Source: an uncultured Pseudomonadales bacterium (lineage in GTDB: Bacteria; Patescibacteriota; Microgenomatia; UBA1400; MFAQ01). Taken from it: a stretch of 64,000 nt of DNA. The notes beneath the pieces are model-generated. The model was given only the letters and a program-made list of their open reading frames with translations. It did not search any database and was not told the DNA's origin. The DNA is taken from assembly GCA_964439805.1 (NCBI GenBank), contig CAYTOI010000001.1:67573-131572 (forward strand), in the 5' to 3' direction. Shown here one piece after another: positions 4,849-33,988 of this stretch. The position numbers and the translations under genes are program-made. Position 1 is the stretch's first letter; each line of letters begins with the position of its first letter.

Positions 4849-6615
4849 TTAAGCGAAATCAAGGGAAAAAAGCTTGTTTTCCCTGGTATCCAAATCCCTT
4901 AGCTTCAACAAAATCTCCTTTTCCTTCTCTTCTTCTCCGTTTTTCTCCGCCAGCTCCCTATCTTTGGCCAAATCTGTCCTTCTCTCTCTAATCATTTCTC
5001 TAGCAATCTTTACGGTAAGATCCAAGACGTTAGACTCGTTAGTTTCTGCCTCTTCTGAGCTCATGTAGATGTCTTTGCAGACCTCTTGCATCTCTGTGGG
5101 CATAGTTAAGAGAAAATCTTTAATTTCCACCCCAGACTCAAGATTATCAAAAACAAAAACCAATAACTTCCACAATCCTCCCGACCCTTCAATGTCTCTT
5201 AGAACTTTTTTTGTCTTTCTTATTAAATCTTGGTTAGCCAGCAAACTTCCAATTAAATTTTTCAAAAGCTTATCAATTCGTGATTCACTTACCGTCTTTT
5301 CCTCTTTCTTAGCAATCACTCCGACCGATCTCCCTGACCGACTTTTGTCAATTTCTGCCAAAACACTATTAAGACTTACCCCAATTTTCTCCGCGAGTCT
5401 TTTGGACCAAACCTCTCGAATGACAACATTTTCAATTTTTGAAAGAAAAGGAATAACTTCCACCAAAACCTTACTTATTCCTTCTGGAGTTCCATCATTG
5501 TTTTTCTTTATCGCTTTTTCCATCACAAACTCATAAACATCAACTGCAGACTCTACCATTTTCTTCCAAAGACCCGCCGAGTTTCGGGCAATTTCATCCG
5601 GATCTTTGCCTCCATCTATCTGTACAACTTTAATATTCAAACCTCTTTTTTCTGCAAGCTCCACCGATCTTTTTATCGCCGCATAACCCGCGTCATCTGC
5701 ATCAAGTGAAACATATATTTTGTTTGCAAGCCGAGCCATCAACTCCATCTGGTCTTCTGTAATCCCTGTTCCTCCAACGGCTACTGTTTCTGTAATGCCA
5801 CTAGCAAAAGAACTGATCTGATCCATCTGACCTTCTACCAAAACCACTCTTTTATTTTCTCTTATTGCTTTTTTTGCTTGGTAAAATCCATAGAGCATTT
5901 TTCCTTTATGATAAATTTCTGTTTCTGGAGAATTTAGATATTTCGGTTCTCCTTCTTTGGCAAGTTCTGGCAACACTCTCCCAGTAAAACCCACCACTCT
6001 ACCTGCCGAATCCTGCAAAGGAAACATCAGCCTTCCTCTAAATTTGTCATAGTACCCTCCTCCAGCTTTCTTAACCACAAGCCCTACTTTCTCCAATAGT
6101 TCCAAGGAATAGTTTTTCTTCTTAGTAAGGTAATTTATCAACGAATCCCAACTACTTAAAGAAAAACCCAAATTATATGTCTCAATTATTTTGCTCGATA
6201 TTTTTCTTCCCTCCAAGTATTTTCTAGCTACTTCCCCTGATTTTCCTGACACCAAAATCCAGTTGTAATATCTAGATGTAAGTTCCATAACTTCCAACAT
6301 CTCATTTTTTATCTCACTATTATTCCCGGATCTTTTCTCTAGCTTTATCCCCACTCTATCTGCCAGTCTCTCCAAAGCATCCAAAAAACTAATTCCTTCA
6401 ACCTCCATTAAAAATTTAATTGAGTCACCTCCTGCACCACATCCAAAACACTTATAAAGATTTAACTCTTCGTTAACCAGAAAACTTGGAGTTTTTTCGG
6501 AGTGAAACGGACACAGCCCCTTCTGATGTCTTCCCATTTTCTTTAAAGCCACATATTGACCTACTACATCCGCAATATTATTTTTGCTCTTTATTTCCTC
6601 AACTTGATCATTCAT
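4849..6615 (-). CDS. dnaG: DNA primase DnaG
   Basis: CHC2 zinc finger (CPFHSEKTPSF...CFGCGAGG) and Toprim region (VVLVEGQMD...DAD). Classic dnaG-rpoD operon order. Confidence 0.95.
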   Translation of the reverse strand: MNDQVEEIKSKNNIADVVGQYVALKKMGRHQKGLCPFHSEKTPSFLVNEELNLYKCFGCGAGGDSIKFLMEVEGISFLDALERLADRVGIKLEKRSGNNSEIKNEMLEVMELTSRYYNWILVSGKSGEVARKYLEGRKISSKIIETYNLGFSLSSWDSLINYLTKKKNYSLELLEKVGLVVKKAGGGYYDKFRGRLMFPLQDSAGRVVGFTGRVLPELAKEGEPKYLNSPETEIYHKGKMLYGFYQAKKAIRENKRVVLVEGQMDQISSFASGITETVAVGGTGITEDQMELMARLANKIYVSLDADDAGYAAIKRSVELAEKRGLNIKVVQIDGGKDPDEIARNSAGLWKKMVESAVDVYEFVMEKAIKKNNDGTPEGISKVLVEVIPFLSKIENVVIREVWSKRLAEKIGVSLNSVLAEIDKSRSGRSVGVIAKKEEKTVSESRIDKLLKNLIGSLLANQDLIRKTKKVLRDIEGSGGLWKLLVFVFDNLESGVEIKDFLLTMPTEMQEVCKDIYMSSEEAETNESNVLDLTVKIAREMIRERRTDLAKDRELAEKNGEEEKEKEILLKLRDLDTRENKLFSLDFA

Positions 6616-7571: not shown

Positions 7572-7573
7572 CT

Positions 7574-7715
7574 GGCGGAGGAGGTGGGATTCGCCTTCGG
7601 TCACTTTCAGTGCCTCAGGACCTGTCTCAGCAGGTTTGTTACAAAACTGCTTCCGACTGTCCGAATTCCATATAGCAATAAAAAAATTCTCACATAAAGC
7701 GAGAATTTTTAATTG
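7574..7715 (-). mobile_element. tRNA-Ser(GGA)-associated ~120-nt element ending in a 19-nt copy of the tRNA 3' end
   Basis: gcggaggaggtgggattcg at 7575-7593 repeats the tRNA 3' end at 7716-7734. The intervening sequence contains a terminator hairpin (attctc..gagaat plus T-run) and a ~80-nt segment homologous to 9893-9962 and 11886-11968. Confidence 0.5.
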
Positions 7716-7800
7716 CGGAGGAGGTGGGATTCGGACCCACGAGTGCCGGAGCACACTCGCTTTCCAAGCGAGCGGAATAGACCACTATCCGACTCCTCCG
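7716..7800 (-). tRNA. tRNA-Ser (anticodon GGA)
   Basis: Class II tRNA: acceptor GGAGGAG/CUCCUCC, anticodon stem CUCGC/GCGAG with loop UUGGAAA, long variable arm GUGCUCCGGCAC, T arm GUGGG-UCCGAAU-CCCAC, discriminator G. Confidence 0.85.
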
Positions 7801-7929
7801 AGTGAGCAAGTTTGTAAATTTACTAATTTACAAGTTTGTGAAGCGAGGAGGAGAGGATATCGTAGATATCCGTACTCCTACACAATTCTCTACTCGATTC
7901 TCAAGTTTTAAAACTCAAGCTTCTATATT

Positions 7930-8757
7930 TTACCTCAACCTCCCCAAAGCTGATAGAAGCTCATTTACGTTGTCCAGGTGAACTGTCCCCTCCGGAACCT
8001 TTCCTGCCTTATAAACAGACCAACTTGAGCCGTTGTGTAACCACATTGTTTTTGCTCCAATTTCTGCTGCTGGGATAATATCTCCCGGAAGACTGTCACC
8101 TACCACCAAACACTCCTCTGGTAACACTTCCAAACCAACCATACACTTTACCCAATCAGCTGCACTCTTGTGCTTGTTTTCGTCAGCCACATAAATTAAA
8201 TCAAAATACTCACTCATCCCCGTAGAATTTAATTTCATATTTGTCCAATCCTCGTTAGCATGAGTTACCAACCCTATCTTAATTCCACATCTTTTTACTA
8301 TTTCCAAAACAGCTTCTGCACCCGGCCTAATCCTGGGCTCTTCTGAATATATCTTCATTAATATATCCAAGTTCTCTAGTACAGTCTGTTCATTACCCTC
8401 AAATTCCAAAGCCATTTTCTTTAACACTGCTTCCCATCGTGCCGGATTAACCCCCATTCTCTTGTATTCTTCATCATTAAGTCTCCTCAAACTCTCAATT
8501 ACCAAACCCTCCTCCACTCCCATTTCCTCGGCTACCTTACTAGCATACGCTTCCATGTATTTTGCAAACTTTTCTGTAGTAAAAATCAAAGTATCATCAA
8601 AATCAAACAAGACAGCTTTAATTCCCAATCTATTAAACTTTTCTTTTACTTCTTCTAAAAATCTGTCCTGAAATTTCTCCATTGTGGACAATATATCACA
8701 ATCAAAACTCTCTGCGGAGGGTACAGGAGTCTTGAGGTAATCCGAAATCCCGAGCAT
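7930..8757 (-). CDS. HAD-superfamily hydrolase
   Basis: Motif I FDFDDTL, motif III-IV GDSLPGDI. 275 aa. Confidence 0.8.
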   Translation of the reverse strand: MLGISDYLKTPVPSAESFDCDILSTMEKFQDRFLEEVKEKFNRLGIKAVLFDFDDTLIFTTEKFAKYMEAYASKVAEEMGVEEGLVIESLRRLNDEEYKRMGVNPARWEAVLKKMALEFEGNEQTVLENLDILMKIYSEEPRIRPGAEAVLEIVKRCGIKIGLVTHANEDWTNMKLNSTGMSEYFDLIYVADENKHKSAADWVKCMVGLEVLPEECLVVGDSLPGDIIPAAEIGAKTMWLHNGSSWSVYKAGKVPEGTVHLDNVNELLSALGRLR

Positions 8758-8780
8758 GTCTCGCGGGAGAACCTGTATCC

Positions 8781-8866
8781 TGGCGGTGGGGACAGGACTC
8801 GAACCTGCATGCCCTTGCGAGCGCCAATTTTCGAAATTGGTTCCTTACCATTCGGAGCACCCCACC
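8781..8866 (-). tRNA. tRNA-Ser (anticodon CGA)
   Basis: Class II tRNA with encoded CCA: acceptor GGUGGGG/CCCCACC, anticodon stem CCAAU/AUUGG with loop UUCGAAA, long variable arm, T arm GCAGG-UUCGAGU-CCUGU, discriminator G. Confidence 0.8.
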
Positions 8867-8875
8867 AAATATATG

Positions 8876-8950
8876 TGAGACCGGTGCGATTCGAACGCAC
8901 GACCTCCTCCTTCGCAGGGAGGCGCTCTAATCCAACTGAGCTACGGCCTC
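8876..8950 (-). tRNA. tRNA-Arg (anticodon GCG)
   Basis: Acceptor GAGGCCG/CGGUCUC, D arm GCUC..GAGC, anticodon stem CCUCC/GGAGG with loop CUGCGAA, T arm GUGCG-UUCGAAU-CGCAC, discriminator A. Confidence 0.8.
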
Positions 8951-8996
8951 ATATTAAAACTAAAAGTCTCAACAGCTATATTTTACCTTAACAGCG

Positions 8997-9506
8997 TTAC
9001 TCTAAGGGAAGTTTCTCCGAAAGCCACTTGACTAACCTGTCCATACCCGTGACCTCAGGCTCAACAAAGGGTACAAACTTAGACATCTCTTCTTTTATCT
9101 TTGCCTCGTTACTCTCGCTAATAACCACAACCACATGCCAAGGAGAGTCAACCAGATTTATTCTCAACAACCTCGTTCCCCACTTTGTTTCTATCCAAAA
9201 ATTAGTCATTCTTTGAAAATCATAAAGTCTCCCAACAGAACGAATTCCCCAAGAGGTTAACGTGTTTTTTGTAATCATCGGTTCTGTTCTACTCATGGCC
9301 CACATCATAAATACCAATGCCCAAACCACAAAAACCGGCATTACCCCTTCTATGAAAAACAAAATAACACTAACCAAAAAAGCTATAACGATAACTGAGC
9401 TGTAAAACTCCTTTGTCCACACTTTGTGTGGCCTCTCATAAGACTCCCATTCAAATATGTTTTTTTCCGTTAAGTCGTTAGTTTCAGGCACATTTAATCT
9501 TAGCAT
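8997..9506 (-). CDS. Membrane protein, hypothetical
   Basis: 169 aa with two adjacent TM helices near the middle. Embedded between tRNA genes on the same strand. Confidence 0.5.
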   Translation of the reverse strand: MLRLNVPETNDLTEKNIFEWESYERPHKVWTKEFYSSVIVIAFLVSVILFFIEGVMPVFVVWALVFMMWAMSRTEPMITKNTLTSWGIRSVGRLYDFQRMTNFWIETKWGTRLLRINLVDSPWHVVVVISESNEAKIKEEMSKFVPFVEPEVTGMDRLVKWLSEKLPLE

Positions 9507-9523
9507 ATCAACCTCAAAAACCT

Positions 9524-9613
9524 TGGCGGAGGGGCAGGGATTCGAACCCTGGGTGAGTATTACCTCACGGAGGTTTAGTAAACCTCTGCACTAGACCACT
9601 ATGCGACCCCTCC
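9524..9613 (-). tRNA. Class II (Ser-type, G73) tRNA with atypical anticodon loop UUACUAA (apparent anticodon ACU)
   Basis: Encoded CCA; acceptor GGAGGGG/CCCCUCC; D stem GCA/UGC; anticodon stem GAGGU/ACCUC; long variable arm GUGAG-GUAAUA-CUCAC; T arm CAGGG-UUCGAAU-CCCUG. A34 is unusual. Confidence 0.6.
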
Positions 9614-9614
9614 T

Positions 9615-9699
9615 TGGCGGAGAGTACAGGGGTCGAACCTGTTAGGGCTTACGCCCATTAGTTTTCAAGACTAACGCATTACCGTCCTGCCCACTCTCC
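9615..9699 (-). tRNA. tRNA-Ser (anticodon UGA)
   Basis: Class II tRNA with encoded CCA: acceptor GGAGAGU/ACUCUCC, anticodon stem UUAGU/ACUAA with loop CUUGAAA, long variable arm GGGCGUAAGCCC, T arm ACAGG-UUCGACC-CCUGU. Lies 1 nt from the neighbouring tRNA. Confidence 0.8.
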
Positions 9700-9763
9700 G
9701 TGCATTGTATTTTATCATTTTAAACTTAATTTTGTGCTTGAACCTGTTAAAATAATTAAGATT

Positions 9764-9846
9764 GGAGGCGTCCGATAGTGGTTATTCGAGCGGATTGCTA
9801 ATCCGCGGCCCAAAAGGCCCCGTGGGTTCGAATCCCACCGCCTCCG
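9764..9846 (+). tRNA. tRNA-Ser (anticodon GCU)
   Basis: Acceptor GGAGGCG/CGCCUCC, anticodon stem GCGGA/UCCGC with loop UUGCUAA, long variable arm GGCCCAAAAGGCCC, T arm GUGGG-UUCGAAU-CCCAC, discriminator G. Confidence 0.85.
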
Positions 9847-9982
9847 CAATAAAATCTGTCCGCCTTGTGTGGGCAGATTTTTATTGCCAAAGTGGGAATC
9901 GAACATGCCGGAACCAGTTTCGTAACGAACCTGGTGAGGCCGGTCCTGAACAAAAGTGAGGGCGAATCCCACCGCCTCCGCA
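9847..9982 (+). mobile_element. tRNA-Ser(GCU)-associated ~120-nt element ending in a 20-nt copy of the tRNA 3' end
   Basis: Terminator hairpin at 9851-9885 (aaaatctg..gcc/ggc..cagatttt plus T-run). A ~75-nt segment follows that is homologous to the 7595-7676 segment (ggaatcgaaca..cggaacc..agtttcgtaacgaacctg..tgag..ggtcctga..aaagtga). cgaatcccaccgcctccgca at 9963-9982 repeats 9827-9846. Confidence 0.5.
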
Positions 9983-10030
9983 AATTACGATATACTTTCC
10001 CCAAAGATCTTTACAAAAAAGGAGAAACTC

Positions 10031-10633
10031 ATGACTGATTGTGTATTCTGTGACTTTTCAAAAATAAAAGAGAGAACTATTGCCACCATTGAGGGATTTA
10101 ATATTGTTGCCACTTTTGGCCAAATCACCAACGGTGGATACTTACTCTTAATCCCCTCAAGACACATCCCCTGCCTCGGTGATCTTAAGGCTGAAGAAAT
10201 TACAATATTTGAAAACATATTAAGTCAAACAATAGTCTTTTTGGAAGAAGAGTATCAAAACGGTGTTACCTTATTCGAACACGGCATCGTAGGCCAGACC
10301 GTCAAACATGCCCATCTTCATCTAATACCTTCCAAAATAAAATTCCACAAAAATATTGTTTCTGATTTCCCCCACTCAGAAATGCAGTCAATCAGCAGCT
10401 TCACTCAACTTTCAAGTCTATTTAAAAAACGACAAGAACCCTATCTCCTCTGGTCAACCTCAAACAATTACTACCAAATTTGCTGGAACCCTCCAGCCGT
10501 CCCAGAATACCTTCGCACTCTTTCAGCTCAAACTCTTGGAGTTCCAGAACGAGGCAGTTGGCGAAACATGGATCCAAAACTAGACAAAGAGCTGATTGAC
10601 CAAACAATGACAAGAATGTTTCCTTTTTTTTAA
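10031..10633 (+). CDS. HIT-family (histidine triad) hydrolase
   Basis: HAHLHLIP histidine-triad motif. ATG at 10031 is preceded by AAAGGAG; the longer ORF-track start at 9956 would overlap the tRNA-derived repeat. Confidence 0.8.
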   Translation: MTDCVFCDFSKIKERTIATIEGFNIVATFGQITNGGYLLLIPSRHIPCLGDLKAEEITIFENILSQTIVFLEEEYQNGVTLFEHGIVGQTVKHAHLHLIPSKIKFHKNIVSDFPHSEMQSISSFTQLSSLFKKRQEPYLLWSTSNNYYQICWNPPAVPEYLRTLSAQTLGVPERGSWRNMDPKLDKELIDQTMTRMFPFF

Positions 10634-10645
10634 TTCCTAACCTTC

Positions 10646-10671
10646 AGACCTGAGCAATCAGGTCTTTTTTT
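10646..10671 (+). terminator. Rho-independent terminator after the HIT gene
   Basis: agacctga-gcaa-tcaggtct hairpin followed by TTTTTTT. Confidence 0.6.
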
Positions 10672-11368
10672 AATGCCCCAAGGCAAAACCCCAAACCACT
10701 GCCACTCCAGCTTGTTTTAAAACCTTACAGCACTCTTTCATGTTCGACCCAGTTGTAAAAACATCATCTACAAGCAACACCTTCTTTCCACTCAAACTTT
10801 TATTTTCTCTATCTTGAGTTCTTGATTCCTTGGGTTCTTGAGTTCTAATTGAAAAAGCATCCCTAATATTTTCAACTCTTTCCTCCCTGCTCTTCATCAA
10901 AGCTTGCTGCTTGGTATTTTTGATCCTTTTTAAAACATTTACACAAGGTACCCCAACCTTCTCACCCAGCACTCTCCCAATTTCCTCAGCCTGATTAAAA
11001 CCTCTCCAATTTTGACGATAAAAATGCAAAGGAACAGGGACTAAACAATCAAAATTAACACCGGTCTCAATGCTCATATTCTCAAAAAGCCTAGCCACTA
11101 AATCCTTATTAAAATCATATTTGATTGTATCTACAACCGACCTCACACTAGGATCTCCATACTCAAAAAGCACTATCAACCCGTCCATACCTAAGTCCCT
11201 CTTGCACTTCTCATGAGTCCAGCCCATTATTGATTCCTGCTCACACATGGGGCATATCTGGGCTGATATACCCAACTCTTTCTCACAACCCACACACAAG
11301 TCTTCTTCCAGCTTGCCACAAACAGCACATGTCTTGGGGAAGAAAAAGTCCTTCAAAACACTCAACAT
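10670..11368 (-). CDS. ComF-family phosphoribosyltransferase-domain protein
   Basis: N-terminal double Cys-x2-Cys zinc finger (CAVCGK..CVGCEK..CPMCEQ) and C-terminal PRTase motif VLLVDDVFTTGSN. Carries an in-frame octamer-repeat insertion at 10812-10846 (RTQEPKESRTQDRENKS). Confidence 0.8.
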   Translation of the reverse strand: MLSVLKDFFFPKTCAVCGKLEEDLCVGCEKELGISAQICPMCEQESIMGWTHEKCKRDLGMDGLIVLFEYGDPSVRSVVDTIKYDFNKDLVARLFENMSIETGVNFDCLVPVPLHFYRQNWRGFNQAEEIGRVLGEKVGVPCVNVLKRIKNTKQQALMKSREERVENIRDAFSIRTQEPKESRTQDRENKSLSGKKVLLVDDVFTTGSNMKECCKVLKQAGVAVVWGFALGH

Positions 11369-11445
11369 ATCTCATTTTACTTGATTTTTGAGCTCAAATG
11401 TGTTAATATTATAGGTAGTAATATATGCAGTATATTGCAGGTATT

Positions 11446-11842
11446 GGGGACGACAGGAATCGATGGGTAAGTTCATTTACAAGATGCAAGCCTCCTTTGG
11501 TAAAAGGAGTAAAAAAGACCAAAAAACAACTGTCAACAAAGAAGACAAGTTACTTGGATCCATCGATTTCGGTGGTTTCAATTCTTCCGCTCGTGCTTTC
11601 GCTTTTGCCTAAGCATAGCTTGAAGACGTCTTAGAGAATATCGGATCCCGGGGTACCTTTAAGGCGATAAAAAACCGGATTGAATGTTTTGAGTTTGATT
11701 AAGGCTCAAAAACTAACTTTTTCTTAATCGACCACACAGTGTTCTTGTTTGCCTGAAGCTTTGTGGAAAATCGGCAATCTAAGCTTGTAGTATCTTTAAA
11801 TCAATTTATTCAGACGAGAGTTCAATTCTCTCCGTCTCCACA
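11446..11842 (+). ncRNA. ssrA: tmRNA (ssrA)
   Basis: 5' GGGGACGACAGGAAUCGAUGGG resembles the E. coli 5' end. 3' GAGAG-UUCAAUU-CUCUC T arm plus CGUCUCC-A acceptor pair with the 5' end, including the G3-U70 Ala identity pair. Internal tag frame ...GGFNSSARAFAFA ends at TAA 11610-11612. smpB is adjacent. Confidence 0.8.
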
Positions 11843-12040
11843 CATAAAAGAGTCTCCCTTGCGGAGATTTTTTTATGTGTCAAGAAAAGAGATTTGAACT
11901 AAACGGAGCCAAACCTGTAACAGTTTTGGCGAGTTGGGGTCGACGAATTTGCGAAGCAAATATCGGTGACTTCAATTCTCTCCGTCTCCACACATAAAAG
12001 AGTCTCCCTTGTGGAGGCCTTTTTGTTTAAAAATTATATC
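11843..12040 (+). mobile_element. tmRNA-associated element ending in a ~50-nt copy of the tmRNA 3' end and terminator
   Basis: Terminator at 11846-11878. A ~90-nt segment then shares the ..gaac..cggagcca..aacctg-taac-agtttt..ggcgag..gggtc.. motifs with the two tRNA-Ser-associated elements. ttcaattctctccgtctccacacataaaagagtctcccttgtggag at 11971-12020 copies 11821-11870. Confidence 0.5.
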
Positions 12041-12044
12041 AAGA

Positions 12045-12146
12045 CCATAATGACTTCTGTAATTATGGGCGTAGACATAAGAGGAAGCACAGGATGATAG
12101 TTCAATAATTATTTATTATTGAACAGAAGACGAGCAAGCTCTTATT
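12045..12146. repeat. ~100-nt structured dispersed repeat, copy 2
   Basis: Near-identical to 6634-6736 and retains the same nested hairpins. Confidence 0.7.
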
Positions 12147-12401
12147 TTCTAAGAGATCTAAAAAATGCAATTTTTTCTGTAAGCAAAAGTCCCATCATTT
12201 GGTCTTTACTAGACTGCATAACAACAGCGGCCAAAAACAGGTCAAACTCATCTTCGTTCATTTTGGCAACTTTGACAGCAATATTCTCTTCCCATTTTTT
12301 AACACTCATTTTCGCGTTAAATTCATTTCCCCAAGGAAATTGCATTACGCAAGTTGGCATAATTTTTGTCCAAAAAACATCCATATTTTTTGCCTTTCAG
12401 G

Positions 12402-12839
12402 CTAAGTATTTTTTAATCTTCTCGCCAACCCAGCGTCCACGTCCCTCTTTTTGATAGCTTCCCTTTTTTCATATTTTTTCTTACCTTTAACCAAAGCTAT
12501 CTGGACCTTTATGAGACTGCCCTTATTATACAGCTTCACAGGCACCAAAGTCAAACCCGCTGATCTCATTTTGCTCTGAATTTCGATGATTTCCTTCTTG
12601 TGTAAAAGGATCTCTTTGGACCTAGAACTATCATAAGTTTCACTAGAATCATACTTATATTTCAATATATTAAGACCTATTATTTTTGCCTTACCTTCGT
12701 CAAATATTACTCTTGCTCCCGCAAAGTTCACCCCACCATCACGCACAGCCTTGACCTCAGCTCCAGTCAGCACAATACCTGCCTCATAAGACTCAATTAT
12801 CTGATAATCAAAGGTTGCTTTTTTGTTTACGAGAGACAC
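12402..12839 (-). CDS. smpB: SsrA-binding protein SmpB
   Basis: KKATFDY..IESYEAGIVLTGAEVKAVR signature and a basic C-terminal tail. Adjacent to the tmRNA. Confidence 0.9.
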   Translation of the reverse strand: MSLVNKKATFDYQIIESYEAGIVLTGAEVKAVRDGGVNFAGARVIFDEGKAKIIGLNILKYKYDSSETYDSSRSKEILLHKKEIIEIQSKMRSAGLTLVPVKLYNKGSLIKVQIALVKGKKKYEKREAIKKRDVDAGLARRLKNT

Positions 12840-12843
12840 GTAT

Positions 12844-14760
12844 CTAGTTTAACACCCCGACAGCACCTGGAAACAATACTATTAGCCTATTTTCCCCATC
12901 AAATTCTATGTCTTTTGCCTCTTTAAGCTTGTCCGACTTGATCTGTTGACTACAAACACCATCTTTTTTGCTACAAAACACTACCGAGCCTGATTTTGAA
13001 GACAACAAGGCAATTCTGTCCCCCTCTTTCTCAACTGACATTTTTTCAAACTCCATCTCAGGAGACAGCCCGCTCACGCTAAACACCTCTTTTGAGCCTC
13101 TTCTGAACCTCTCAATCTGCCCCTTTTCCTCTAACACCCATATATCTACATCAATATCCAAATCTATCGGAGAAGAAGCAATTACTTGACCCTCCTTCAG
13201 CCATCTGGCTCTTTCTCCAAATCCAGAATCAGTTAATGGGTATTTAAATATTTCCTTGTTATTTTTCTCCAAAACATAAAGGTTTGCCCCAAACTTAGCA
13301 AATGACAATGGAGATGTTACTGCCGTGTCAAACGTCATAGAACTAGACTCTTCGCCTACAGGAAACATTCCACTCTTGCTCATTACATAATATTTGGTTC
13401 CATCCGAAACCGCATCCATCCACCCCAAGCCAGCGCCTTTACCAGCCACCACTTTTACTTCTTTTGTTTTTGTATCTACCGACATTACAATTCCCAAACC
13501 AGAACTAGTAACCACAAACTTCCCATCAATCACAAAACTCATTTTGTTGGCGTTCACCCCAGCTCTTATTAACTCTAGGTTTACTAGTTCAGTAATATTA
13601 CCTCCCTTTTCCCCCGAAACACTTACCCAAGCATCTGCGATTTTTTTGTCCAATTCTTCTGCTTTTGATTTAAATTCACCACTAGAAAACTCCAGCTTTC
13701 TCAGATCAAAAGCAAGCCTCGCGTCTTCTACTAATTTCTTTGACCCAGCAGGGTTTAGTTTGGTAAGACCTATTGCTTCGTTTACGTTTTTTTCTATTGG
13801 TTGAGAAAACGAGATCCATTTGTTACTATTTTCCTGATTTTTCTTACGAACACTCCCCAGCATTAAACTGACAACAAGCAATCCAAGGAACAAAACTCCT
13901 AGAAATAATGACAATCTCTTCTGTTTTATGGTTTTCTGATCAGTAGAGATATTTACAGTTTTTCTCTCTCCGAAGCGATTTTTTATTTTTTGCCAAATAC
14001 CAATTTTTCCAACATACTTATCACTCGCCAGAATCTCCCTCTCAAAAACTTCCACTCCACTCTTGACTCCTTCTTCTACCTTTGCAGGTTCAATTTCCTC
14101 AGTCTTATTCTCCACAACTTCTTCCAAAACAACTGTCGGATTCTCCTCTTCAACCGCCAAACCCTCTGCAACCATTTTAAAACCAGCATAGCTTCCCAAG
14201 CTTAAGTCTTCTTTTGCACTTTCCCACGTCTCAAAATCTTCGCTTAAGTTCCCCACCCAAAATCTTACAACATCCTTGTCTTTCAGTTCTCCAGTAATAA
14301 CTTTCCCATTTTCTAAATTTTTCCCTATATCTATCTGTGTTCCTTCTCTTTCAATTATCAGTTTCCCTTTCGTGTTTCCCACCATTTTTATTTTTCTTAC
14401 TCCAGACACCATCACCACCCAAACCCAAAGACAATCAAATTCAGGGTATTTCTCCAAAAAACCAGCAAACAAGCCGGTCAAATTCCCTCCAGTTTCATCA
14501 GCATTAAAAAATTCCTCTACCCAATTTGTCATCTCTACTTCAACGTCTGCCCATCCTTCTTTTTTCTCCGACTTTACCACTCCAAACAACGCCCCTTTTT
14601 GTTTTAGCTCCACCTCATCAAAAGGCAATCTAGCAAAAACCTGAGACCACGAAGAAGTGTCTTCTTCACACACAAATCTAAGAAAGTTTAATCCAAAACC
14701 ATTATTCACACTAATATAACTATAACAGTTATAGCGATACAAAGGAAACAAAATCCCCAA
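12844..14760 (-). CDS. Hypothetical membrane-anchored protein
   Basis: 638 aa: soluble N-terminal ~260 aa, one TM (LSLFLGVLFLGLLVVSLMLG), then a ~350-aa beta-rich probable extracellular domain. The start codon is uncertain. Confidence 0.5.
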   Translation of the reverse strand: MGILFPLYRYNCYSYISVNNGFGLNFLRFVCEEDTSSWSQVFARLPFDEVELKQKGALFGVVKSEKKEGWADVEVEMTNWVEEFFNADETGGNLTGLFAGFLEKYPEFDCLWVWVVMVSGVRKIKMVGNTKGKLIIEREGTQIDIGKNLENGKVITGELKDKDVVRFWVGNLSEDFETWESAKEDLSLGSYAGFKMVAEGLAVEEENPTVVLEEVVENKTEEIEPAKVEEGVKSGVEVFEREILASDKYVGKIGIWQKIKNRFGERKTVNISTDQKTIKQKRLSLFLGVLFLGLLVVSLMLGSVRKKNQENSNKWISFSQPIEKNVNEAIGLTKLNPAGSKKLVEDARLAFDLRKLEFSSGEFKSKAEELDKKIADAWVSVSGEKGGNITELVNLELIRAGVNANKMSFVIDGKFVVTSSGLGIVMSVDTKTKEVKVVAGKGAGLGWMDAVSDGTKYYVMSKSGMFPVGEESSSMTFDTAVTSPLSFAKFGANLYVLEKNNKEIFKYPLTDSGFGERARWLKEGQVIASSPIDLDIDVDIWVLEEKGQIERFRRGSKEVFSVSGLSPEMEFEKMSVEKEGDRIALLSSKSGSVVFCSKKDGVCSQQIKSDKLKEAKDIEFDGENRLIVLFPGAVGVLN

Positions 14761-14921
14761 ACCAAAACCCTCAAACTTCCCCCAATTGGATAGTTCACCA
14801 CCTTATTCATAAGACCAGATTGCCTCACCATAATAAGAGACAGAATAGAAAGAAGTATGAACCCCACATTCACCATCACATTAACTATCAGGTTAACGAT
14901 GTTATTTATAGACAGTTCCAT
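14706..14921 (-). CDS. Small membrane protein, hypothetical
   Basis: 71 aa with two hydrophobic segments. Overlaps the end of the neighbouring gene, so support is weak. Confidence 0.3.
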   Translation of the reverse strand: MELSINNIVNLIVNVMVNVGFILLSILSLIMVRQSGLMNKVVNYPIGGSLRVLVWGFCFLCIAITVIVILV

Positions 14922-14923
14922 TT

Positions 14924-15565
14924 TTATCTTCTCCTTTCTTCATCTTCATTATCAATAAGTTGTGAAATAACCTGTACCACCTTGTCGGGACTAGAAATAT
15001 TTTCAAAGGTAAAGGCTGACAGCTCTCCAGATGCGTCAGGTGTTTTTTGTTCTGAAGCAGTCTGGACGATTACGTCCCCCATATTAAACAAGCTATCCAA
15101 TAACCCATTTTGCGAATAATTGACATCTTCTAGTTTGTGTAGTTCAGCGACGTTTACAGTTTTGTTAAGCAGTCCAGTAAAATCCACATCCACCAGCCTT
15201 TCATCTGTAACGATATAAACGTTATAAAACCACAAAAGAAAATTCATAATTACAAAATAAATTATGCTCAAGTACCAAAGAATGGTAATTTTTTCAAAAA
15301 CGACTTCCGACAGCACTTCAAAAAAAGGAAATGAATGCCAAAAAACGGGAACAATTAAAGCCAACACTACCAAAGAAAGCCACTTTGTGTTTGTAATAGG
15401 ATGTCTCCTTCCCAAAAGAATCACTTCTTCACTTTCGTGCTGAGCATCAAAACAAAGTTTATGAGGATTAATTACAAACGAATCCCAAAAATTACTAGAA
15501 TAGCCAGCACCCAACATCCTCTGTATTTGTTCTGACTCCTTCTCCTTTTTGTAGACTTCTACCAT
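14924..15565 (-). CDS. Bacterial PH-domain (YdbS/YdbT-like) membrane protein
   Basis: Two TM helices followed by a VYIVTDERLVDVDF..GDVIVQT region typical of bPH_2 (DUF304). Confidence 0.6.
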   Translation of the reverse strand: MVEVYKKEKESEQIQRMLGAGYSSNFWDSFVINPHKLCFDAQHESEEVILLGRRHPITNTKWLSLVVLALIVPVFWHSFPFFEVLSEVVFEKITILWYLSIIYFVIMNFLLWFYNVYIVTDERLVDVDFTGLLNKTVNVAELHKLEDVNYSQNGLLDSLFNMGDVIVQTASEQKTPDASGELSAFTFENISSPDKVVQVISQLIDNEDEERRR

Positions 15566-15583
15566 TACCTATATTGTACCAAA

Positions 15584-17353
15584 TCACTTCTTCTCAATAT
15601 TAAACAAGCCACTGAGCAAGGCAACCCTCCCTGAAACCCTAAGATTAAAAACTGTATAAAAATCTTTACCAGAAACATCAAAACCCCCTTTATCCGTATC
15701 AAAATGCACATTAGCTGTAACTCCATTCTCTCCGTAGCTAACCGACACTCCACTTACTGAAGATATTCCCCAACCCTTGTTTTTTGATTCTGACTTCATC
15801 TGCTCCCTAGAATAAGTTTCTTTACTCTGACCAAAACAGCTTTGGTAATCTAATGGCCATATTTTAGAAGCATCTCCGTTTTTGTAAACCACTATCGCAT
15901 TTAGGATGTCTGCCATTTCTTCCGAGGTTAGCCAAGGATGGGACCTCCCGCAACTATTACCAGCTCTATTTTTGTACCAGGCTTTATAAAACCAAGGGCT
16001 GCCACCGGTCTTCTCATACGCCATAGATGTCCAGCCACCTCTTCCAGACGGAGTATCCCAAAAAGCAGGTGTGTTGTAGTGACTTCCATCTTTACGATAA
16101 TCAAGTGCGTCGTAAGATTCTTGATATCCTCCAGAAGTAGATGCATACCAAGGCTTTATCATTTTTCCATCTTTCATCAGCACCCATCCTCTAGTGGCAT
16201 TGACCGCCTCTTCCCACTTTCCGCCTTTGTTTGAATTTTTATAAACCTGACAACTTTCGGTTGTGCAAATTGAACCAGCAGTTCCCTCTTTTGTCCATGC
16301 CAGAGCATAAGTTCTTGCTGCCACAGCTTGGGCCTTGAGTGCTTCAAAACCACCATTATCTCCCCAGCTATTTGGAACTTCATAAACTCTCTTGGTATAT
16401 GTTTCTATATCCATTCGTCCATAACCTTCTACCCCAATCTGTTTTCCACTATCATAATCTTTCTTTATTTCCACTCCTCCATAATATGCTTTGAGAATAT
16501 CCTCAGCGTTCTGTCCACTTTTTGCTCTTCCATAAGCTCCATATTGACTCATGCCTTTAAAATGAGGTGCTCCAAAAGAAAAGGCGGCAAAGGCCGGAGA
16601 AAAACCAGGGTTGTAATCCGGTCTACTAGCTGCATCATCTGCGAGAGGCACATCTCCAACTGTAGTAGAAAAGGTTCCTGTTTTTTCTGCAAGCAAGCTT
16701 TGTTGTTGTGCAGACAAAGCAGCTATCTTATTTCCCAATTCACTCTGATAGGCTTTCGCTTTTTTCACTTCTCCCAAGAAGAAATTATTTTGTTTATCTA
16801 GTTCTGTTTGCAGTTTTGCCAGCTGAACCTTTTGAACTTCCAGTTTTTGCTTGTCAATCTCCAAAGAAGATATCTCTGTAACAAGCGAAACTATTATTTG
16901 TCTATCTTTATCGTTTGTATCTTGCCTGTAGGCAATTTCCCTACGAATTTCTCCCAGTGGCTTTCCAGAAACCAAATTTGCCCACAAGGGCCGAGATCTT
17001 AATCTTTTGTACATTTCCCGAAGCTTAACTGATAAGACCAAATATTGTTCCGAAACTTTTTCTCCTCTTTTTTTTATTTCTATCTCTGTTTCTTTTTGTT
17101 TTTTGGCTGCACTGTCCATTTGAGACTGAATCGATTTTATTCTGGTACTAAGCTTGCTGATCTCCGACTCCAAGGGACGAGTAGCCGCCACACTCATTTC
17201 CATCGACTTGTTTAGCTCACTTATCTGATCCCCCAAACACTTATACAGATCATCACCATTTTTTCCAGAACAATTCACCTCAGCAAAAACAAATGTTTTC
17301 AACAGAACAAACATCAAGGCAATAATCAGAAGATATCTCTTATACATCCACAT
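15584..17353 (-). CDS. Secreted coiled-coil protein with C-terminal SpoIID/LytB-like domain
   Basis: Signal peptide, ~200-aa coiled coil, then GAPHFKGMSQYGAYG...AARTYALAW...TESCQVYK, which resembles SpoIID/LytB amidase-enhancer domains. Confidence 0.6.
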   Translation of the reverse strand: MWMYKRYLLIIALMFVLLKTFVFAEVNCSGKNGDDLYKCLGDQISELNKSMEMSVAATRPLESEISKLSTRIKSIQSQMDSAAKKQKETEIEIKKRGEKVSEQYLVLSVKLREMYKRLRSRPLWANLVSGKPLGEIRREIAYRQDTNDKDRQIIVSLVTEISSLEIDKQKLEVQKVQLAKLQTELDKQNNFFLGEVKKAKAYQSELGNKIAALSAQQQSLLAEKTGTFSTTVGDVPLADDAASRPDYNPGFSPAFAAFSFGAPHFKGMSQYGAYGRAKSGQNAEDILKAYYGGVEIKKDYDSGKQIGVEGYGRMDIETYTKRVYEVPNSWGDNGGFEALKAQAVAARTYALAWTKEGTAGSICTTESCQVYKNSNKGGKWEEAVNATRGWVLMKDGKMIKPWYASTSGGYQESYDALDYRKDGSHYNTPAFWDTPSGRGGWTSMAYEKTGGSPWFYKAWYKNRAGNSCGRSHPWLTSEEMADILNAIVVYKNGDASKIWPLDYQSCFGQSKETYSREQMKSESKNKGWGISSVSGVSVSYGENGVTANVHFDTDKGGFDVSGKDFYTVFNLRVSGRVALLSGLFNIEKK

Positions 17354-26693: not shown

Positions 26694-28421
26694 ATGCAGT
26701 ATTTCCGCAAACACCTAGCCCTCATTTTTTCTTTGTCTTTTTTCCTGTTCTCCTTCCTCACCCTCCTCCCCACCCCCTCCCATGCAGAAATTGACGCAGC
26801 AAGTATCGCAACCTGGATGACAAACTTTCCAAAAGATAATCCTTGGGCTCTAGCAAAAGAATTTTGCGACAAACGCAATGGAGATCTTATGAACCTTGAA
26901 ACTTGGTATTCGGGAAAATGTGGAAAAGATATAAATTCAAAAAGCGGTGAAGGAGTTGGCTTTGTAGATATTGTTATATTACAAGGTTATGAGTGGTTGT
27001 TTAGACCTCAAACAAAATCATTACCAGAACAAATGATAGACAATTTAAAAGACCTAGAAACAATTAGGGAAAAAATTACATATCAGAATTATAAGGAAAA
27101 ACTTGCAGAATTAGCCTTGAAACAATCAAAAAACAAGGATATTATTTCAAGCTTAGAACAGGCTACAAAAAATGTAATTACCACCCAGCCAGTTAGCAGT
27201 GTGGACTACCTTGCATATGTTGGTAACAACTTAAAGAAAAACCATGTTGTTGATTCAGCTTATGCAGCAACTCCAGGTTATGGTTTTGGCGGATTAGCAC
27301 CAATTCTCCCCATTTGGAAAGCCTTCAGAAACATTGCTTATATGCTTTTCGCAATAGCTTTTGTAATGTACGGAGTAATGATTATGTTTCGAATTCGAGT
27401 GGATGGTAAAACAGCAGCCACAATAACATTGGCAATACCAAAGTTAATTACAACCCTTTTATTAATAACTTTCTCTTATGCCATTGTGGGCTTATTGGTA
27501 GATTTATCTACTGTTGCAAGTGCATTACTTATTGATGTCTTAAGGGTTGGAAAAATAATAAAAGACCCAATAGAAGGTGTTGTAAGGGGTTCAAGCGGAC
27601 TTGGGAGCTGGGGAATGATAGGATCTTTTTTAATAAATACGCTATCTTCCATAATAATTTCTCCCTTTATTGTTTTTAATCTATTACTTGGAGGTTTTTT
27701 TAGTGCTACTTGGGCTTGGGTTGGTATAGTTTTAAGTCTAGCTACGGGTATTGGAGAAGCAATAGCAATTATACTTGTGATTGCAGTTATCTGGTCTTAT
27801 ATAAAATTAATTCTTAAACTCTTTCAGTCATACTTATCAATAATTGTAAGTTTGGTCTTTAGTCCAATAATTCTTCTTGGAAATGTAATGCCAGGATCAA
27901 AGGCGTTCTCTGGCTGGATAATGGGAATATTAGGCAACCTTTCAACTTTTCCCGCAGCAGCCTTTTTGCTCACCCTATCATATGCTCTTATGATGCAACC
28001 GGTAGTCAATGCCTTCCCCAATGCTAATTTGGGTGTTGTATCATTGGCCCCATCAGGAGGAAATGGTTGGACAACAGCTGCTGGTACTGGTACAAACATG
28101 TGGGCACCCCAAATAGTAGTACCTCAAGGAGGTGGACTGGGTGATTTAATGCTAGCCACCATAGGTATTGGCCTTCTTCTCATGTCTAGTAAATATGTTG
28201 ATATGGTACTTAAAGCGTTCAACACCCCACCATTCCCCTATGGAGCTGCAATAGGCGACGCGCTTAAATATGGATACTCTCAAGCCAGTGATCCAAACAG
28301 TTCTTACAGAACATCTAAATTTGGAAATCGTGCAAATGCTGTAACTGAGGGACTTTACAATATAGGCCCAAAAAGGCTAACTGGAAACACAATTTGGCAG
28401 GACACAAAAGGCATGTTCTAA
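26694..28421 (+). CDS. VirB6/TrbL-like polytopic membrane protein (putative)
   Basis: 575 aa: signal peptide, ~200-aa extracytoplasmic domain, then at least six TM helices and a Gly-rich C-terminus. This architecture and its position in the T4SS-like locus fit the VirB6 family. No sequence motif is diagnostic. Confidence 0.45.
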   Translation: MQYFRKHLALIFSLSFFLFSFLTLLPTPSHAEIDAASIATWMTNFPKDNPWALAKEFCDKRNGDLMNLETWYSGKCGKDINSKSGEGVGFVDIVILQGYEWLFRPQTKSLPEQMIDNLKDLETIREKITYQNYKEKLAELALKQSKNKDIISSLEQATKNVITTQPVSSVDYLAYVGNNLKKNHVVDSAYAATPGYGFGGLAPILPIWKAFRNIAYMLFAIAFVMYGVMIMFRIRVDGKTAATITLAIPKLITTLLLITFSYAIVGLLVDLSTVASALLIDVLRVGKIIKDPIEGVVRGSSGLGSWGMIGSFLINTLSSIIISPFIVFNLLLGGFFSATWAWVGIVLSLATGIGEAIAIILVIAVIWSYIKLILKLFQSYLSIIVSLVFSPIILLGNVMPGSKAFSGWIMGILGNLSTFPAAAFLLTLSYALMMQPVVNAFPNANLGVVSLAPSGGNGWTTAAGTGTNMWAPQIVVPQGGGLGDLMLATIGIGLLLMSSKYVDMVLKAFNTPPFPYGAAIGDALKYGYSQASDPNSSYRTSKFGNRANAVTEGLYNIGPKRLTGNTIWQDTKGMF

Positions 28422-30800: not shown

Positions 30801-30810
30801 ATTATTTCAA

Positions 30811-33921: not shown

Positions 33922-33988
33922 ACCTCCATCTTATCTCAAAAAACCAAATCTTTCCTTAAACACGATATACTAATACATAGCTAATCTT

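Follow-up and report, generated by a model that had tools for sequence, protein, structure and literature searches.

Gene-less inserts of about 140 bases follow three tRNA and tmRNA genes of a Collierbacteria genome

Host genes and architecture of the inserts

In a genome of the Collierbacteria (candidate phyla radiation), each of three tRNA or tmRNA genes is followed by a gene-less insert of about 140 bases. The window, by which we mean the whole 64-kb stretch of DNA analysed, contains homologous units, here named E1, E2 and E3, behind tRNA-Ser(GGA) (7715–7799, minus strand), tRNA-Ser(GCU) (9764–9847, plus strand) and the tmRNA (11446–11841, plus strand; tag VNKEDKLLGSIDFGGFNSSARAFAFA). Direct repeats of the gene 3' ends are spaced 140, 134 and 150 nt apart, respectively. 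All three host genes were identified with ARAGORN and Rfam (tRNA model, 51.3 bits, for tRNA-Ser(GGA), also read from the sequence; RF00023, 113 bits, for the tmRNA). A first-pass annotation had claimed homologous elements at these three genes, and every feature it described was recovered in place.

The tRNA-Ser(GGA) gene has a T loop TCCGAAT, with a C at position 55, and no CCA is encoded where it ends (..CCGC|AATT). It is directly followed by a terminator-like hairpin flanked by runs of A and T (7680–7714, minus strand; terminator scan 7710–7682, minus strand, 12 pairs). The folded module of E1 (7580–7672, minus strand), which is recognized by covariance models R1 and R2, comprises the 5' strand of helix P1, a P2-P3 arm with a GUAAC loop, a P5-P4 arm and the 3' strand of P1. 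It contains an inverted T-arm copy, TGGAATTCGGAC, at 7659–7670. This inverted arm mirrors the unusual C55 of the host T loop, a position missing from the distal copy. The unit ends in the displaced tRNA 3' end CGAATCCCACCTCCTCCGCCA (7573–7593, minus strand; repeat families D1 and D4, and sequence), which encodes CCA and directly adjoins the stop codon of a patatin-like gene. A 19-nt exact repeat, CGAATCCCACCTCCTCCGC, is present at the gene 3' end and at 7575–7593 (minus strand).

The tRNA-Ser(GCU) gene does not encode CCA in the window either. The terminator-like hairpin of E2 (GCAATAAAATCTG..CAGATTTTTATTGC; 9848–9888, plus strand) was identified in the sequence, and the terminator scan placed its call on the opposite strand (9877–9859). 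The folded module (9891–9976, plus strand), found by both models, contains the inverted T-arm copy GTGGGAATCGAAC at 9892–9904 and has a reduced P4 hairpin. Its distal copy of the tRNA 3' end (9963–9981, plus strand; repeat family D2) is the second occurrence of a 19-nt exact repeat, CGAATCCCACCGCCTCCGC, and is followed by the leader of a HIT-family gene (ATG at 10031; Pfam HIT/DcpS_C).

In E3, a terminator-like hairpin and linker (11842–11885, plus strand; sequence, inverted repeat I9, terminator scan on the opposite strand at 11867–11853) precede the folded module (11886–11986, plus strand; model R2 with filters off, E = 1.2e-6), which contains the inverted T-arm copy AGAGATTTGAAC at 11888–11899. 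This module has the best single-sequence fold z-score (−4.0) and is 98% identical to the copy in L286. The tmRNA 3' end is repeated exactly over 21 nt (11821–11841 and 11971–11991); including the terminator, the repeat spans 57 nt at 91% identity (11818–11874 versus 11968–12024, repeat family D3), so that the distal copy at 11968–12024 (plus strand) carries a second terminator (terminator scan 12002–12018). The P3 arms of E3 are permuted relative to E1 and E2, and its P5 is of the GUC..GAC type. The swap of hairpin arms noticed earlier is real: E1 reads CAGTTTTG-TAA-CAAACCTG, and E3 reads CAAACCTG-TAA-CAGTTTTG.

Read outward from the host gene, a cassette consists of a replacement 3' end without CCA, a terminator-like hairpin, an inverted T-arm copy and a conserved core, after which comes the displaced original 3' end. 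The cassettes have no coding capacity. The first-pass annotation had mentioned neither the inverted T-arm copy at the 5' end of each unit, nor the CCA in the distal copy of tRNA-Ser(GGA), nor the wide family outside this genome.

A conserved fold closed by the displaced 3' end

The interior segments of E1, E2 and E3 are homologous in a MAFFT alignment. The inverted T-arm copy that opens each unit pairs with the T-loop/T-stem of the displaced copy to form the closing helix P1, so that one strand folds into a three-way junction with helices P2-P3 and P5-P4 inside P1. The closing helix bridges the junction between cassette and host, and each of the two core arms is composed of a 3-bp helix, a purine-rich internal loop and a hairpin.

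Base pairing is supported by covariation. When 13 sequences are aligned with the covariance model, the paired fraction of cells is 95.1% and both sides have changed in 23 of 28 pairs, values reached by none of 500 shuffles (slid controls: 32–48% paired, 4–10 pairs). A 23-sequence alignment has 94.1% of cells paired and compensatory changes in 26 of 28 pairs; such alignments are biased towards the model's own structure, and since the aligned sequences are partly akin to one another, independent events are fewer than the counts suggest. RNAalifold, applied to an unfitted MAFFT alignment, predicts P2, P3, P5 and P4, with 17 of 19 pairs compensated. The excess of G-U and U-G (12 together) over A-C (4) points to the strand shown as the one that folds. 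Between E1 and the L286 copy of the same site (95% identical) there are eight substitutions, four of which form two compensatory pairs, a pattern indicating selection on the copy in place; the E1 terminator stem differs from that of L286 by a compensatory A-T to G-C change. Together, these comparisons show that the cassettes carry a conserved fold, which bears out the earlier suggestion of a structured element.

Distribution of the family

An nhmmer search of the window returned the three copies at E = 1e-16 to 1e-18 and the next best match at E = 7, a circular result, since the profile was made from these same copies. Model R1, which was built from cassettes of other genomes only, detected E1 (E = 6e-10) and E2 (E = 1.5e-7). 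Model R2 with filters off found exactly three copies in the 64 kb (8e-12 for E1, 5e-10 for E2, and 1e-6), with the next match at E = 2.

Further copies, for which the first-pass annotation had proposed a search, were found with the covariance model in records of Collierbacteria, Nomurabacteria, Paceibacterota and Saccharibacteria; the family extends over several Patescibacteria lineages. Their host genes are tmRNA, tRNA-Ser, tRNA-Ile(UAU) and tRNA-Arg(CCG), with tandem arrays in places. A second, distal copy of the 3' end lies no more than 400 nt away from 14 of the tmRNA genes called in the examined loci, and every Collierbacteria-like locus examined has its tmRNA site filled. Nearly all model matches (22/23) lie behind an RNA gene in sense orientation. 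The boundaries are tight: in one CPR lineage after another the compact unit keeps terminator and module no more than a few bases apart. The palindrome of the terminator begins right at the gene 3' end in E1 to E3 and, in Paceibacterota-type copies, runs on into the complement of the acceptor strand. Cassettes have no match in Rfam or the literature, nor, by blastn, in GenBank phages and PLSDB plasmids; five viral-contig scans gave no cassette match, a result that for one of them covers the 120 matches listed of at least that many.

Occupancy and turnover between relatives

Empty orthologous sites, which the first-pass annotation had proposed to look for, are present in relatives. The tRNA-Ser(GGA) site is empty in L005 and L006 (gene ends ..CCGCCA / ..CCGCCC), and the tRNA-Ser(GCU) site in L005 and L286, the latter gene encoding CCA and having no cassette. 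Conversely, tRNA-Ser(ACU) is empty in the window and L004 and carries a cassette in L005. One relative lacks the cassette at tRNA-Ser(GCU) despite an SmpB that is 99% identical. CCA is present in empty genes and in displaced copies and is missing from the rebuilt genes, a pattern that requires insertion events. These comparisons show gain or loss of cassettes between close relatives. Cassettes also form tandem arrays, namely in L006, L108 and L144, and the far 3'-end copy in L006 has decayed.

Module cores follow neither host gene nor host phylogeny. The L003 tmRNA agrees with that of the window at 94.6% over its 3' 168 nt and is followed by a different core type; over about 62 nt this core differs from the tRNA-Ser(ACU) core of L005 by one compensated pair, with host-specific arms. 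The P2-P3 core of E2 is identical at 35/37 positions to an insert in the tRNA-Arg(CCG) gene of L085, which is antisense to its host and lies between classical att-like 46-nt repeats. Copies of one genome resemble one another: all three in the window have the GUAAC loop, and both in L005 have GACUG and CAGCAG loops.

Of the situations that might have undone the earlier claim, none was encountered: copies and covariation are not lacking, the duplications do not reflect orthologous drift alone, and the similarity is not confined to the tRNA-derived part.

Search for a mover

A Pfam scan of 30 window ORFs revealed no recombinase, and we found neither a free or circular cassette form nor an autonomous relative carrying the module. 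The loci L105/L022, L013 and L100 have large serine recombinase genes that adjoin the 3' ends of tRNA or tmRNA genes. In L105/L022, a 5.3-kb island with such a gene occupies the tmRNA gene beside an older module; in L105 this module lies beyond the displaced tmRNA 3' end and therefore predates the island. No locus was found in which a module forms an island's own attR arm at the far end. The modules have no promoter-like site and are immediately preceded by a terminator-like hairpin.

Interpretation

Our best explanation, which we give a probability of about one half, is that E1–E3 are recombinase-less T-loop insertion cassettes with a functional folded module. Site-specific recombination within the block that cassette and target have in common would bring the cassettes in and yield attL/attR-like repeats, and a recombinase encoded elsewhere would move them. 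Related genomes have islands at the same tRNA/tmRNA 3' ends, and the large serine recombinases that integrate these islands are candidate movers. The fold may be needed as a recombination substrate, a folded single strand then re-creating the target duplex in the manner of integron attC sites or CTX phage attP, or as an RNA produced by read-through from the host gene. The first-pass annotation had listed a miniature, non-autonomous tRNA/tmRNA-targeting family, a structured element and convergent deletion remnants without choosing among them. The first two are supported and the third is not, the miniature family being supported indirectly by empty sites, tandem arrays with decayed far copies, CCA-keeping displaced ends and the independence of cores from host gene and phylogeny, with neither a mobilising enzyme nor a free form found. 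Besides the negative searches for a recombinase, a free form, an autonomous relative and phage, plasmid or viral-contig matches, other points speak against the cassette reading: a double-stranded circle of 134–150 bp would be unusually small; the inverted arm matches each new host, which the reading leaves unaccounted for; and the same-site compensatory change in two relatives suits an RNA with a function for the host no less than it suits a selfish element.

Such a function is the premise of a second reading, which we consider rather unlikely: the module is a host-beneficial non-coding RNA gene, expressed by read-through of the tmRNA/tRNA terminator or from an unrecognised promoter, whose tRNA-derived arms only close the fold or contact the 3' half of the host RNA, and which spread by duplication and gene conversion with no dedicated mobility. 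Strong, strand-specific covariation, compensatory differences between the 95% identical same-site copies of the window and L286, the 22/23 sense matches behind RNA genes and the filled tmRNA site of every Collierbacteria-like locus examined all favour it, and the likeness of copies within the window (GUAAC) and within L005 (GACUG, CAGCAG) could reflect co-evolution with one partner. It fits poorly with the lack of promoter-like sites behind an upstream terminator-like hairpin, with variable tRNA-Ser occupancy, with decaying tandem copies, with the antisense L085 copy inside its 46-nt att-like repeats and with the insertion events that the displaced CCA demands.

That the units are decayed remnants of ordinary islands or prophages, of which only the two att-proximal ends are left after deletion of the interior, seems improbable to us. 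Such elements classically leave direct repeats of tRNA/tmRNA 3' ends behind, and a serine recombinase island does lie near an older module in L105/L022, but that module predates the island and none was seen as an island's own attR arm. Moreover, four named CPR groups and four kinds of host gene share a compact unit with tight boundaries, the closing helix unites the two supposedly separate ends, and the covariation and the compensatory changes in 95% identical same-site copies place the structure under selection.

Finally, the direct–inverted–direct order could be a functionless by-product of replication or repair, through template switching at the palindromic terminator as in duplication/inverted triplication/duplication events; the position of the palindrome at the gene 3' end (E1 to E3) or its extension into the acceptor-strand complement (Paceibacterota-type) and the mirrored C55 that the distal copy lacks agree with this and could mean that the inverted arm originated in this way, but the 60–90-nt conserved core between inverted and direct copies, its covariation and its near-identity across different host genes and genomes are left unaccounted for, which weighs heavily against it as a full explanation and makes it highly improbable.

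Comparison with known systems

The insertion cassettes share features with several known mobile elements. Like the tRNA/tmRNA islands and prophages of the class catalogued in the Islander database (PMC4383910), they split a target gene and restore it with element-borne sequence, their far end is marked by a displaced 3' fragment, integration is known to use the T loop as a sublocation, and tmRNA, tRNA-Ser and tRNA-Arg are common targets. Those islands comprise kilobases and an integrase, whereas the cassettes span 130–300 bp, have no ORF and consist almost wholly of a terminator and a folded module that draws on the displaced fragment for its closing helix (PMC4383910 for the island class).

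Recombinase-bearing islands of tmRNA genes likewise insert at the 3' end of a single-copy tmRNA gene, and in Patescibacteria loci, too, large serine recombinase genes adjoin tRNA/tmRNA 3' ends; unlike the cassettes, these islands have the recombinase and cargo genes aboard. They reportedly use a serine recombinase and integrate in tandem, and we know of no structured non-coding module or inverted target copy described for them.

Integron cassettes, too, are small, lack promoters and accumulate in arrays at a single site, and their folded attC is a single-stranded recombination site conserved in structure rather than sequence; in our cassettes, the folded species may be DNA or RNA. In both, the recipient site supplies the outer part of the closing helix (R''/R' in integrons), which for this reason bridges the junction, and bases left unpaired or bulged are conserved. 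An integron cassette normally has an ORF; the present ones lack the GTTRRRY core and target the tRNA/tmRNA T loop, and neither IntI nor attI was found near them. CTX phage attP(+) and other XerCD-dependent IMEX integrate as single-stranded DNA in folded form. In them, as in the cassettes, two inverted target-like segments pair and re-create a duplex copy of the chromosomal target; these are replicating phages that target dif, whereas the cassettes have no Xer-type site and no phage genes.

CIMEs are cis-mobilizable, non-autonomous derivatives of integrative elements and are treated together with IMEs. Like these and MITEs, the cassettes have att sites or repeats on their flanks, no recombinase of their own and presumed mobilisation in trans. 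CIMEs differ in their kilobase size and in being left over from a known parent element, for which the cassettes have no known counterpart; MITEs have fixed terminal inverted repeats, target duplications of fixed length and many dispersed copies, whereas cassettes have target-specific arms and are confined to RNA-gene 3' ends. On the best reading, E1–E3 would belong to an undescribed Patescibacteria family of very small gene-less cassettes of about 130–300 bp.

Three RNA genes carry gene-less inserts of a common layout

Eight RNA genes were called in the window with ARAGORN and Rfam. Three of these, all intact, host a cassette: tRNA-Ser(GGA) (7715-7799, minus strand; cassette E1), tRNA-Ser(GCU) (9764-9847, plus strand; E2), and tmRNA (11446-11841, plus strand; E3). 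Each cassette comprises a new 3' end for its host, a terminator-like hairpin, a folded module, and the displaced old 3' end. The first-pass annotation had described the succession of terminator hairpin, internal segment, and direct copy of the RNA 3' end behind each gene; the direct repeats are exact over 19 (E1), 19 (E2), and 21 nt (E3). The tmRNA repeat stretches to 57 nt at 91% identity when the terminator is included. Measured start to start, the repeats are 140 (E1), 134 (E2), and 150 nt (E3) apart, and the ORFs listed for the three units are all short ones that run into the RNA genes.

In every unit of the window, the first segment copies the host T arm in inverted orientation. This inverted arm reads TGGAATTCGGAC in E1 (the host's T arm has the true complement TGGGATTCGGAC), GTGGGAATCGAAC in E2 (true complement, GTGGGATTCGAAC), and AGAGATTTGAAC in E3 (true complement, AGAGAATTGAAC). 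The inverted reading accounts for 12/13 positions; reading the arm as a direct repeat of the T-arm 5' half gives a poor fit and was rejected. Pairing of the inverted arm with the T-loop/T-stem portion of the distal copy forms the closing helix of the module, P1, and the acceptor strand of the distal copy is left as a trailing 3' tail. Inside P1 lie two arms. In the P2-P3 arm, the 3-bp P2 gives way to GG-A facing GA on the opposite strand, and then to the hairpin P3; the P5-P4 arm consists of a 3-bp P5, a GA/GA internal loop, two to three more pairs, a bulged A, and the hairpin P4. For the hairpin directly 3' of each host gene, a terminator was called on at least one strand. By eye, an A run and a T run flank this hairpin on opposite sides, which would allow termination of transcription in both directions. 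No promoter-like sites were found at the modules, which have the terminator-like hairpin upstream.

The surrounding region is ordinary chromosome, with dnaG, rpoD, a patatin-like gene, and genes for a HAD hydrolase, a HIT protein, a ComF-like protein, and SmpB, and with dnaA and dnaN farther along. The window belongs to a genome of Candidatus Collierbacteria (Patescibacteria, the candidate phyla radiation); its SmpB is identical to one database entry, and the named relatives are Collierbacteria. Immediately upstream of smpB is a 638-aa ORF without a Pfam match (12844-14760, minus strand), whose position is kept in the loci of three close relatives (L282, L283, and L286). GC content is low (0.31-0.35) over 28000-41300, where ORFs are very large and a PrgI-family protein is encoded (34077-35033); this stretch may represent a gene cluster for type IV secretion or a competence-like function. 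T4SS-pilin-like genes also occur near smpB in L282 and L286.

The modules share a conserved fold

The three interiors had been proposed to be homologous, and they can indeed be aligned with one another. A first-round covariance model built from five cassettes, all from genomes other than that of the window, finds E1 (E = 6e-10) and E2 (E = 1.5e-7). The second-round model, run with filters off, adds E3 (E = 1.2e-6), the best other score in the window being E = 2. Neither nhmmer nor the covariance model with filters off detected further copies of the family in the 64 kb.

The covariation suggested on first inspection held up on a larger sample. In a 13-sequence model alignment, 95.1% of cells are paired and 23 of 28 pairs have changed on both sides, figures reached by none of 500 shuffles; slid-partner controls were 32-48% paired. 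With 23 sequences, 94.1% of cells are paired and 26/28 pairs show changes on both sides. Since both alignments were fitted to the covariance model, RNAalifold was also run on a plain MAFFT alignment, where it predicted P2, P3, P5, and P4 de novo, with 17 of 19 pairs compensated. G-U pairs outnumber A-C mismatches in the fold (12 versus 4), which indicates that the folded strand is the strand shown. The bulged A and the GA/GA internal loops are conserved. The swapped hairpin arms that had been reported are real in E3, where the same P3 duplex is closed at its other end and the GUAAC loop is retained. A flip/flop inversion of the hairpin predicts the loop GTTAC and was rejected, as the observed loop is GTAAC.

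The fold does not correspond to an RNA family in Rfam 15. At the gathering threshold, only tRNA and tmRNA score in the window, none of them over the modules, and nothing credible appears there at E values up to 10. The module motifs were compared by eye with the hammerhead, k-turn, and box C/D consensus sequences and are not assigned to any of them, because the GA motifs lie within the arms rather than at the junction and the spacing misfits. Relatives fetched by their SmpB sequence have analogous units behind tmRNA with interiors too diverged for a sequence profile: nhmmer with a window profile missed every cassette in the first 80 relative loci. The cassettes of relatives were first spotted by eye and by the 3'-end repeat, then by the structure-based model.

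Occupied and empty sites differ between related genomes

Comparison with relatives, which the first-pass annotation had proposed as a check, uncovered empty tRNA-Ser sites in the window and in four loci from other genomes (L004, L005, L006, and L286). The tRNA-Ser(GGA) site is empty in L005 and L006; the tRNA-Ser(GCU) site, occupied by E2 in the window, is empty in L005 and L286; and the tRNA-Ser(ACU) site is occupied in L005 and empty in the window and L004. L286 is a very close relative, with a 99% identical SmpB and the same tmRNA tag, and carries E1-like (95% identity) and E3-like (98% identity) copies. Such presence/absence polymorphism at an att site between related genomes is characteristic of trans-mobilised CIME-like elements. 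An encoded CCA is present in empty genes and in displaced distal copies and absent in rebuilt genes (window E1, the tRNA-Ser(ACU) cassette of L005, and the locus L023; tRNA-Ser(GCU) of L286 versus the window), as expected if the cassette supplies a new 3' end and shifts the old one downstream. We read these units, with a probability of roughly one half, as insertion cassettes that bear a functional folded module but no recombinase and that occupy the T loop of their tRNA or tmRNA host genes.

The main rival, which we consider rather unlikely, is a host RNA gene whose product is made by read-through transcription. It is well served by the near-constant sense orientation of the modules and by compensatory changes in place: the window E1 and its L286 copy differ by eight substitutions, four of which form two compensatory pairs (in the terminator stem and in P4a). 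Judged by sequence comparison, these changes represent selection on the copy in place. The two readings are compatible with each other.

The host of E1 has an unusual T loop. The U55 of the tRNA T loop is normally invariant; tRNA-Ser(GGA) of the window and of L286 (12187-12271) has the T loop TCCGAAT, with C in place of U55, whereas the cassette-free orthologues in L005 and L006 have TTCGAAT. The inverted arm of E1 mirrors this C55, a position that the distal copy lacks, which suggests that the arm was templated from, or has been kept complementary to, the functional gene itself.

The neighbouring tRNA-Ser genes show further rearrangements. Just downstream of tRNA-Ser(CGA) (8781-8866), a fragment (8706-8778, minus strand) resembles the 3' part of the L005-type tRNA-Ser(CGA); it reads ACAGGTTC ... 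GACTCCTGTACCCTCCGC, and its T loop is interrupted by 37 inserted nt that include a hairpin. The tRNA-Ser(CGA) gene appears to have been replaced, because the functional upstream gene has a different acceptor stem from the fragment. The fragment has no match to the covariance model and does not belong to the cassette family. The block of tRNA-Ser(ACU), (UGA), and (GCU) is inverted between the window (9524-9847) and L286 (8618-9596; L005 counterpart, 8495-8811). The breakpoints fall exactly at tRNA 3' ends, as the flank AGGTTTTTGAGG follows ..CCGCCA of tRNA-Ser(ACU) in the window and of tRNA-Ser(GCU) in L286. The HIT gene follows tRNA-Ser(ACU) in L004 and L005 and tRNA-Ser(GCU) plus E2 in the window, and the equivalent region of L286 has no called HIT gene. 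An ACU anticodon is unusual in bacteria; this tRNA-Ser gene (A34; 9524-9613, minus strand) is conserved beside tRNA-Ser(GCU) in L004, L005, L085, and L286. Between tRNA-Ser(UGA) and tRNA-Ser(ACU), the window has a spacer of just 1 nt; L286 has an ORF of about 190 aa there (MRDILTVNKAQELF...; 8704-9361, minus strand), which may be a small inserted gene.

Three assemblies with 99% identical SmpB (L282, L283, and L284) run out within about 0.3-1.1 kb past smpB, in or close to the region of tmRNA and its cassette. These are three of the four contigs examined with such an SmpB and come from three independent assemblies, which suggests that the repeats break assemblies in this region.

Related cassettes occupy several hosts across Patescibacteria

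The search of relatives for more copies was productive, with cassettes found behind tmRNA, tRNA-Ser, tRNA-Ile, and tRNA-Arg. Model matches occur in records named Collierbacteria, Nomurabacteria, Paceibacterota, and Saccharibacteria, and in further Patescibacteria MAGs, some of them evidently mislabelled. The commonest host is tmRNA, and a distal 3'-end copy lies within 400 nt of 14 tmRNA genes called in the loci. The tRNA-Ser hosts have the anticodons GGA, GCU, and ACU, and tRNA-Ile(UAU) is also used, with two tandem modules in the locus L108. In L085, the host is tRNA-Arg(CCG), where a window-type module lies in opposite orientation within a 170-nt insert flanked by 46-nt repeats, which run from the anticodon loop through the 3' end; the closing helix of this module is not tRNA-derived. 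Copies from Nomurabacteria, Paceibacterota, Saccharibacteria, and several other Patescibacteria loci add an acceptor-strand complement and an extra hairpin to the 5' part. Tandem arrays are found in L006, L108, and L144, and in the L006 array the most decayed 3'-end copy is the farthest one.

Comparison of the sequences shows that module cores do not track their hosts. The L003 tmRNA matches the window tmRNA at 94.6% identity over its 3' 168 nt and is followed by a core of another type. This L003 core differs from the L005 tRNA-Ser(ACU) core by one compensated pair over about 62 nt, and the arms and terminators of the two cassettes are host-specific despite these near-identical cores. Similarly, P2-P3 of E2 and that of the tRNA-Arg insert in L085 are identical at 35 of 37 positions, closer than E2 is to E1.

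Other cassette-like units, with an inverted arm and a distal copy, were seen in L016 from Saccharibacteria (about 5400-5774, minus strand; tandemly repeated), in L029 (11419-11540), and after tmRNA in L030/L126. Their hosts are tRNA-Ile(UAU), tRNA-Ser(GGA), and tmRNA. The interiors do not match the covariance model, and the units may represent further families.

Candidate recombinases and comparison with known systems

None of the 30 window ORFs scanned with Pfam, from 64 kb of the genome, contains a recombinase domain. In the loci of other genomes, large serine recombinases at tRNA or tmRNA 3' ends are candidates for moving the cassettes. L105/L022 contains a 5.3-kb island (10751-16260) at the tmRNA 3' end, between tmRNA and an older cassette. 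It encodes a 522-aa large serine recombinase (Resolvase, Recombinase, and Zn_ribbon_recom domains), the last 22 codons of which overlap the tmRNA 3' end; past the island come the displaced tmRNA end in degenerate form, a terminator, and the older cassette. A large serine recombinase gene is also located about 0.5 kb downstream of tRNA-Ser in L013 and adjoins tRNA-Asn in L100 and L102. No recombinase island at a tRNA or tmRNA 3' end in the related loci has the module in its own end. Most long-range repeat matches in the loci came from further tRNA-Ser genes whose ends are alike, and the search for a larger element bounded by the same repeats yielded one 3.6-kb island at tRNA-Asp, which is ordinary and has no module. 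Pattern scans of viral contigs gave nothing or chance matches inside coding sequence (one scan matched at least 120 loci, and all of the 120 listed were checked and rejected), and GenBank phages and PLSDB plasmids gave no blastn match to the module.

Full-text literature searching found no description of such cassettes, which also go unmentioned in a paper on tRNA introns of Patescibacteria. Like islands and prophages integrated in tRNA genes, the cassettes have direct repeats of the 3' part of the target at both ends and restore the gene, but they have no integrase between repeats that are only 134-150 nt apart. With integron attC sites they share an imperfect palindrome conserved in structure rather than sequence, bulged bases, and arrangement in arrays. 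Integron cassettes are defined by the core sites RYYYAAC and GTTRRRY and by an adjacent intI and attI, whereas here the closing helix is T-arm sequence and the GTTRRRY core is absent; the window ORFs scanned include no tyrosine recombinase domain and no intI. The cassettes have neither a dif site nor phage genes and so fall outside the class of CTX phage attP. MITEs have constant terminal inverted repeats, a target duplication of fixed length, and many dispersed copies. In contrast, the cassette arms vary with the host gene, the repeats measure 19-57 nt, and only three cassettes are present in 64 kb, all of them behind RNA genes.

As an insertion cassette, the unit would enter by site-specific recombination within the block it shares with its target. 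By analogy with integron attC and CTX phage attP, P1 in the folded single strand would re-create the target duplex. A bolder proposal, which we regard as improbable, casts the inverted T-arm and sense 3'-end segments as a target reader that directs a recombinase of its minimal-genome host by complementarity, giving a natural retargetable system of about 140 nt. The segments would pair with both strands of the tRNA or tmRNA gene or, when folded, re-create the gene duplex, and complementarity of nucleic acids, instead of recognition of DNA by a protein, would determine the choice of new T loops. Deletion from larger islands is a still less probable origin and template switching the least probable of all, as remnants or by-products of either kind leave the conserved core common to several sites unexplained.

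Implications for Patescibacteria

Under either the insertion-cassette or the host-RNA reading, annotation pipelines need to account for the distal fragments and for altered maturation of 3' ends; the rebuilt genes have no encoded CCA. If mobile, the cassettes would rank with the smallest known units of site-specific insertion, rebuilding an essential RNA gene while carrying a folded module only, and they could explain the frequent breaks of Patescibacteria assemblies at tmRNA and tRNA loci. Their host-specific arms and shared cores raise the question of how one family retargets among tmRNA, tRNA-Ser, tRNA-Ile, and tRNA-Arg. To our knowledge, very few regulatory RNAs are known in Patescibacteria; if the module is an RNA with a host function, it would represent a new, widespread class of structured RNA tied to the trans-translation locus.
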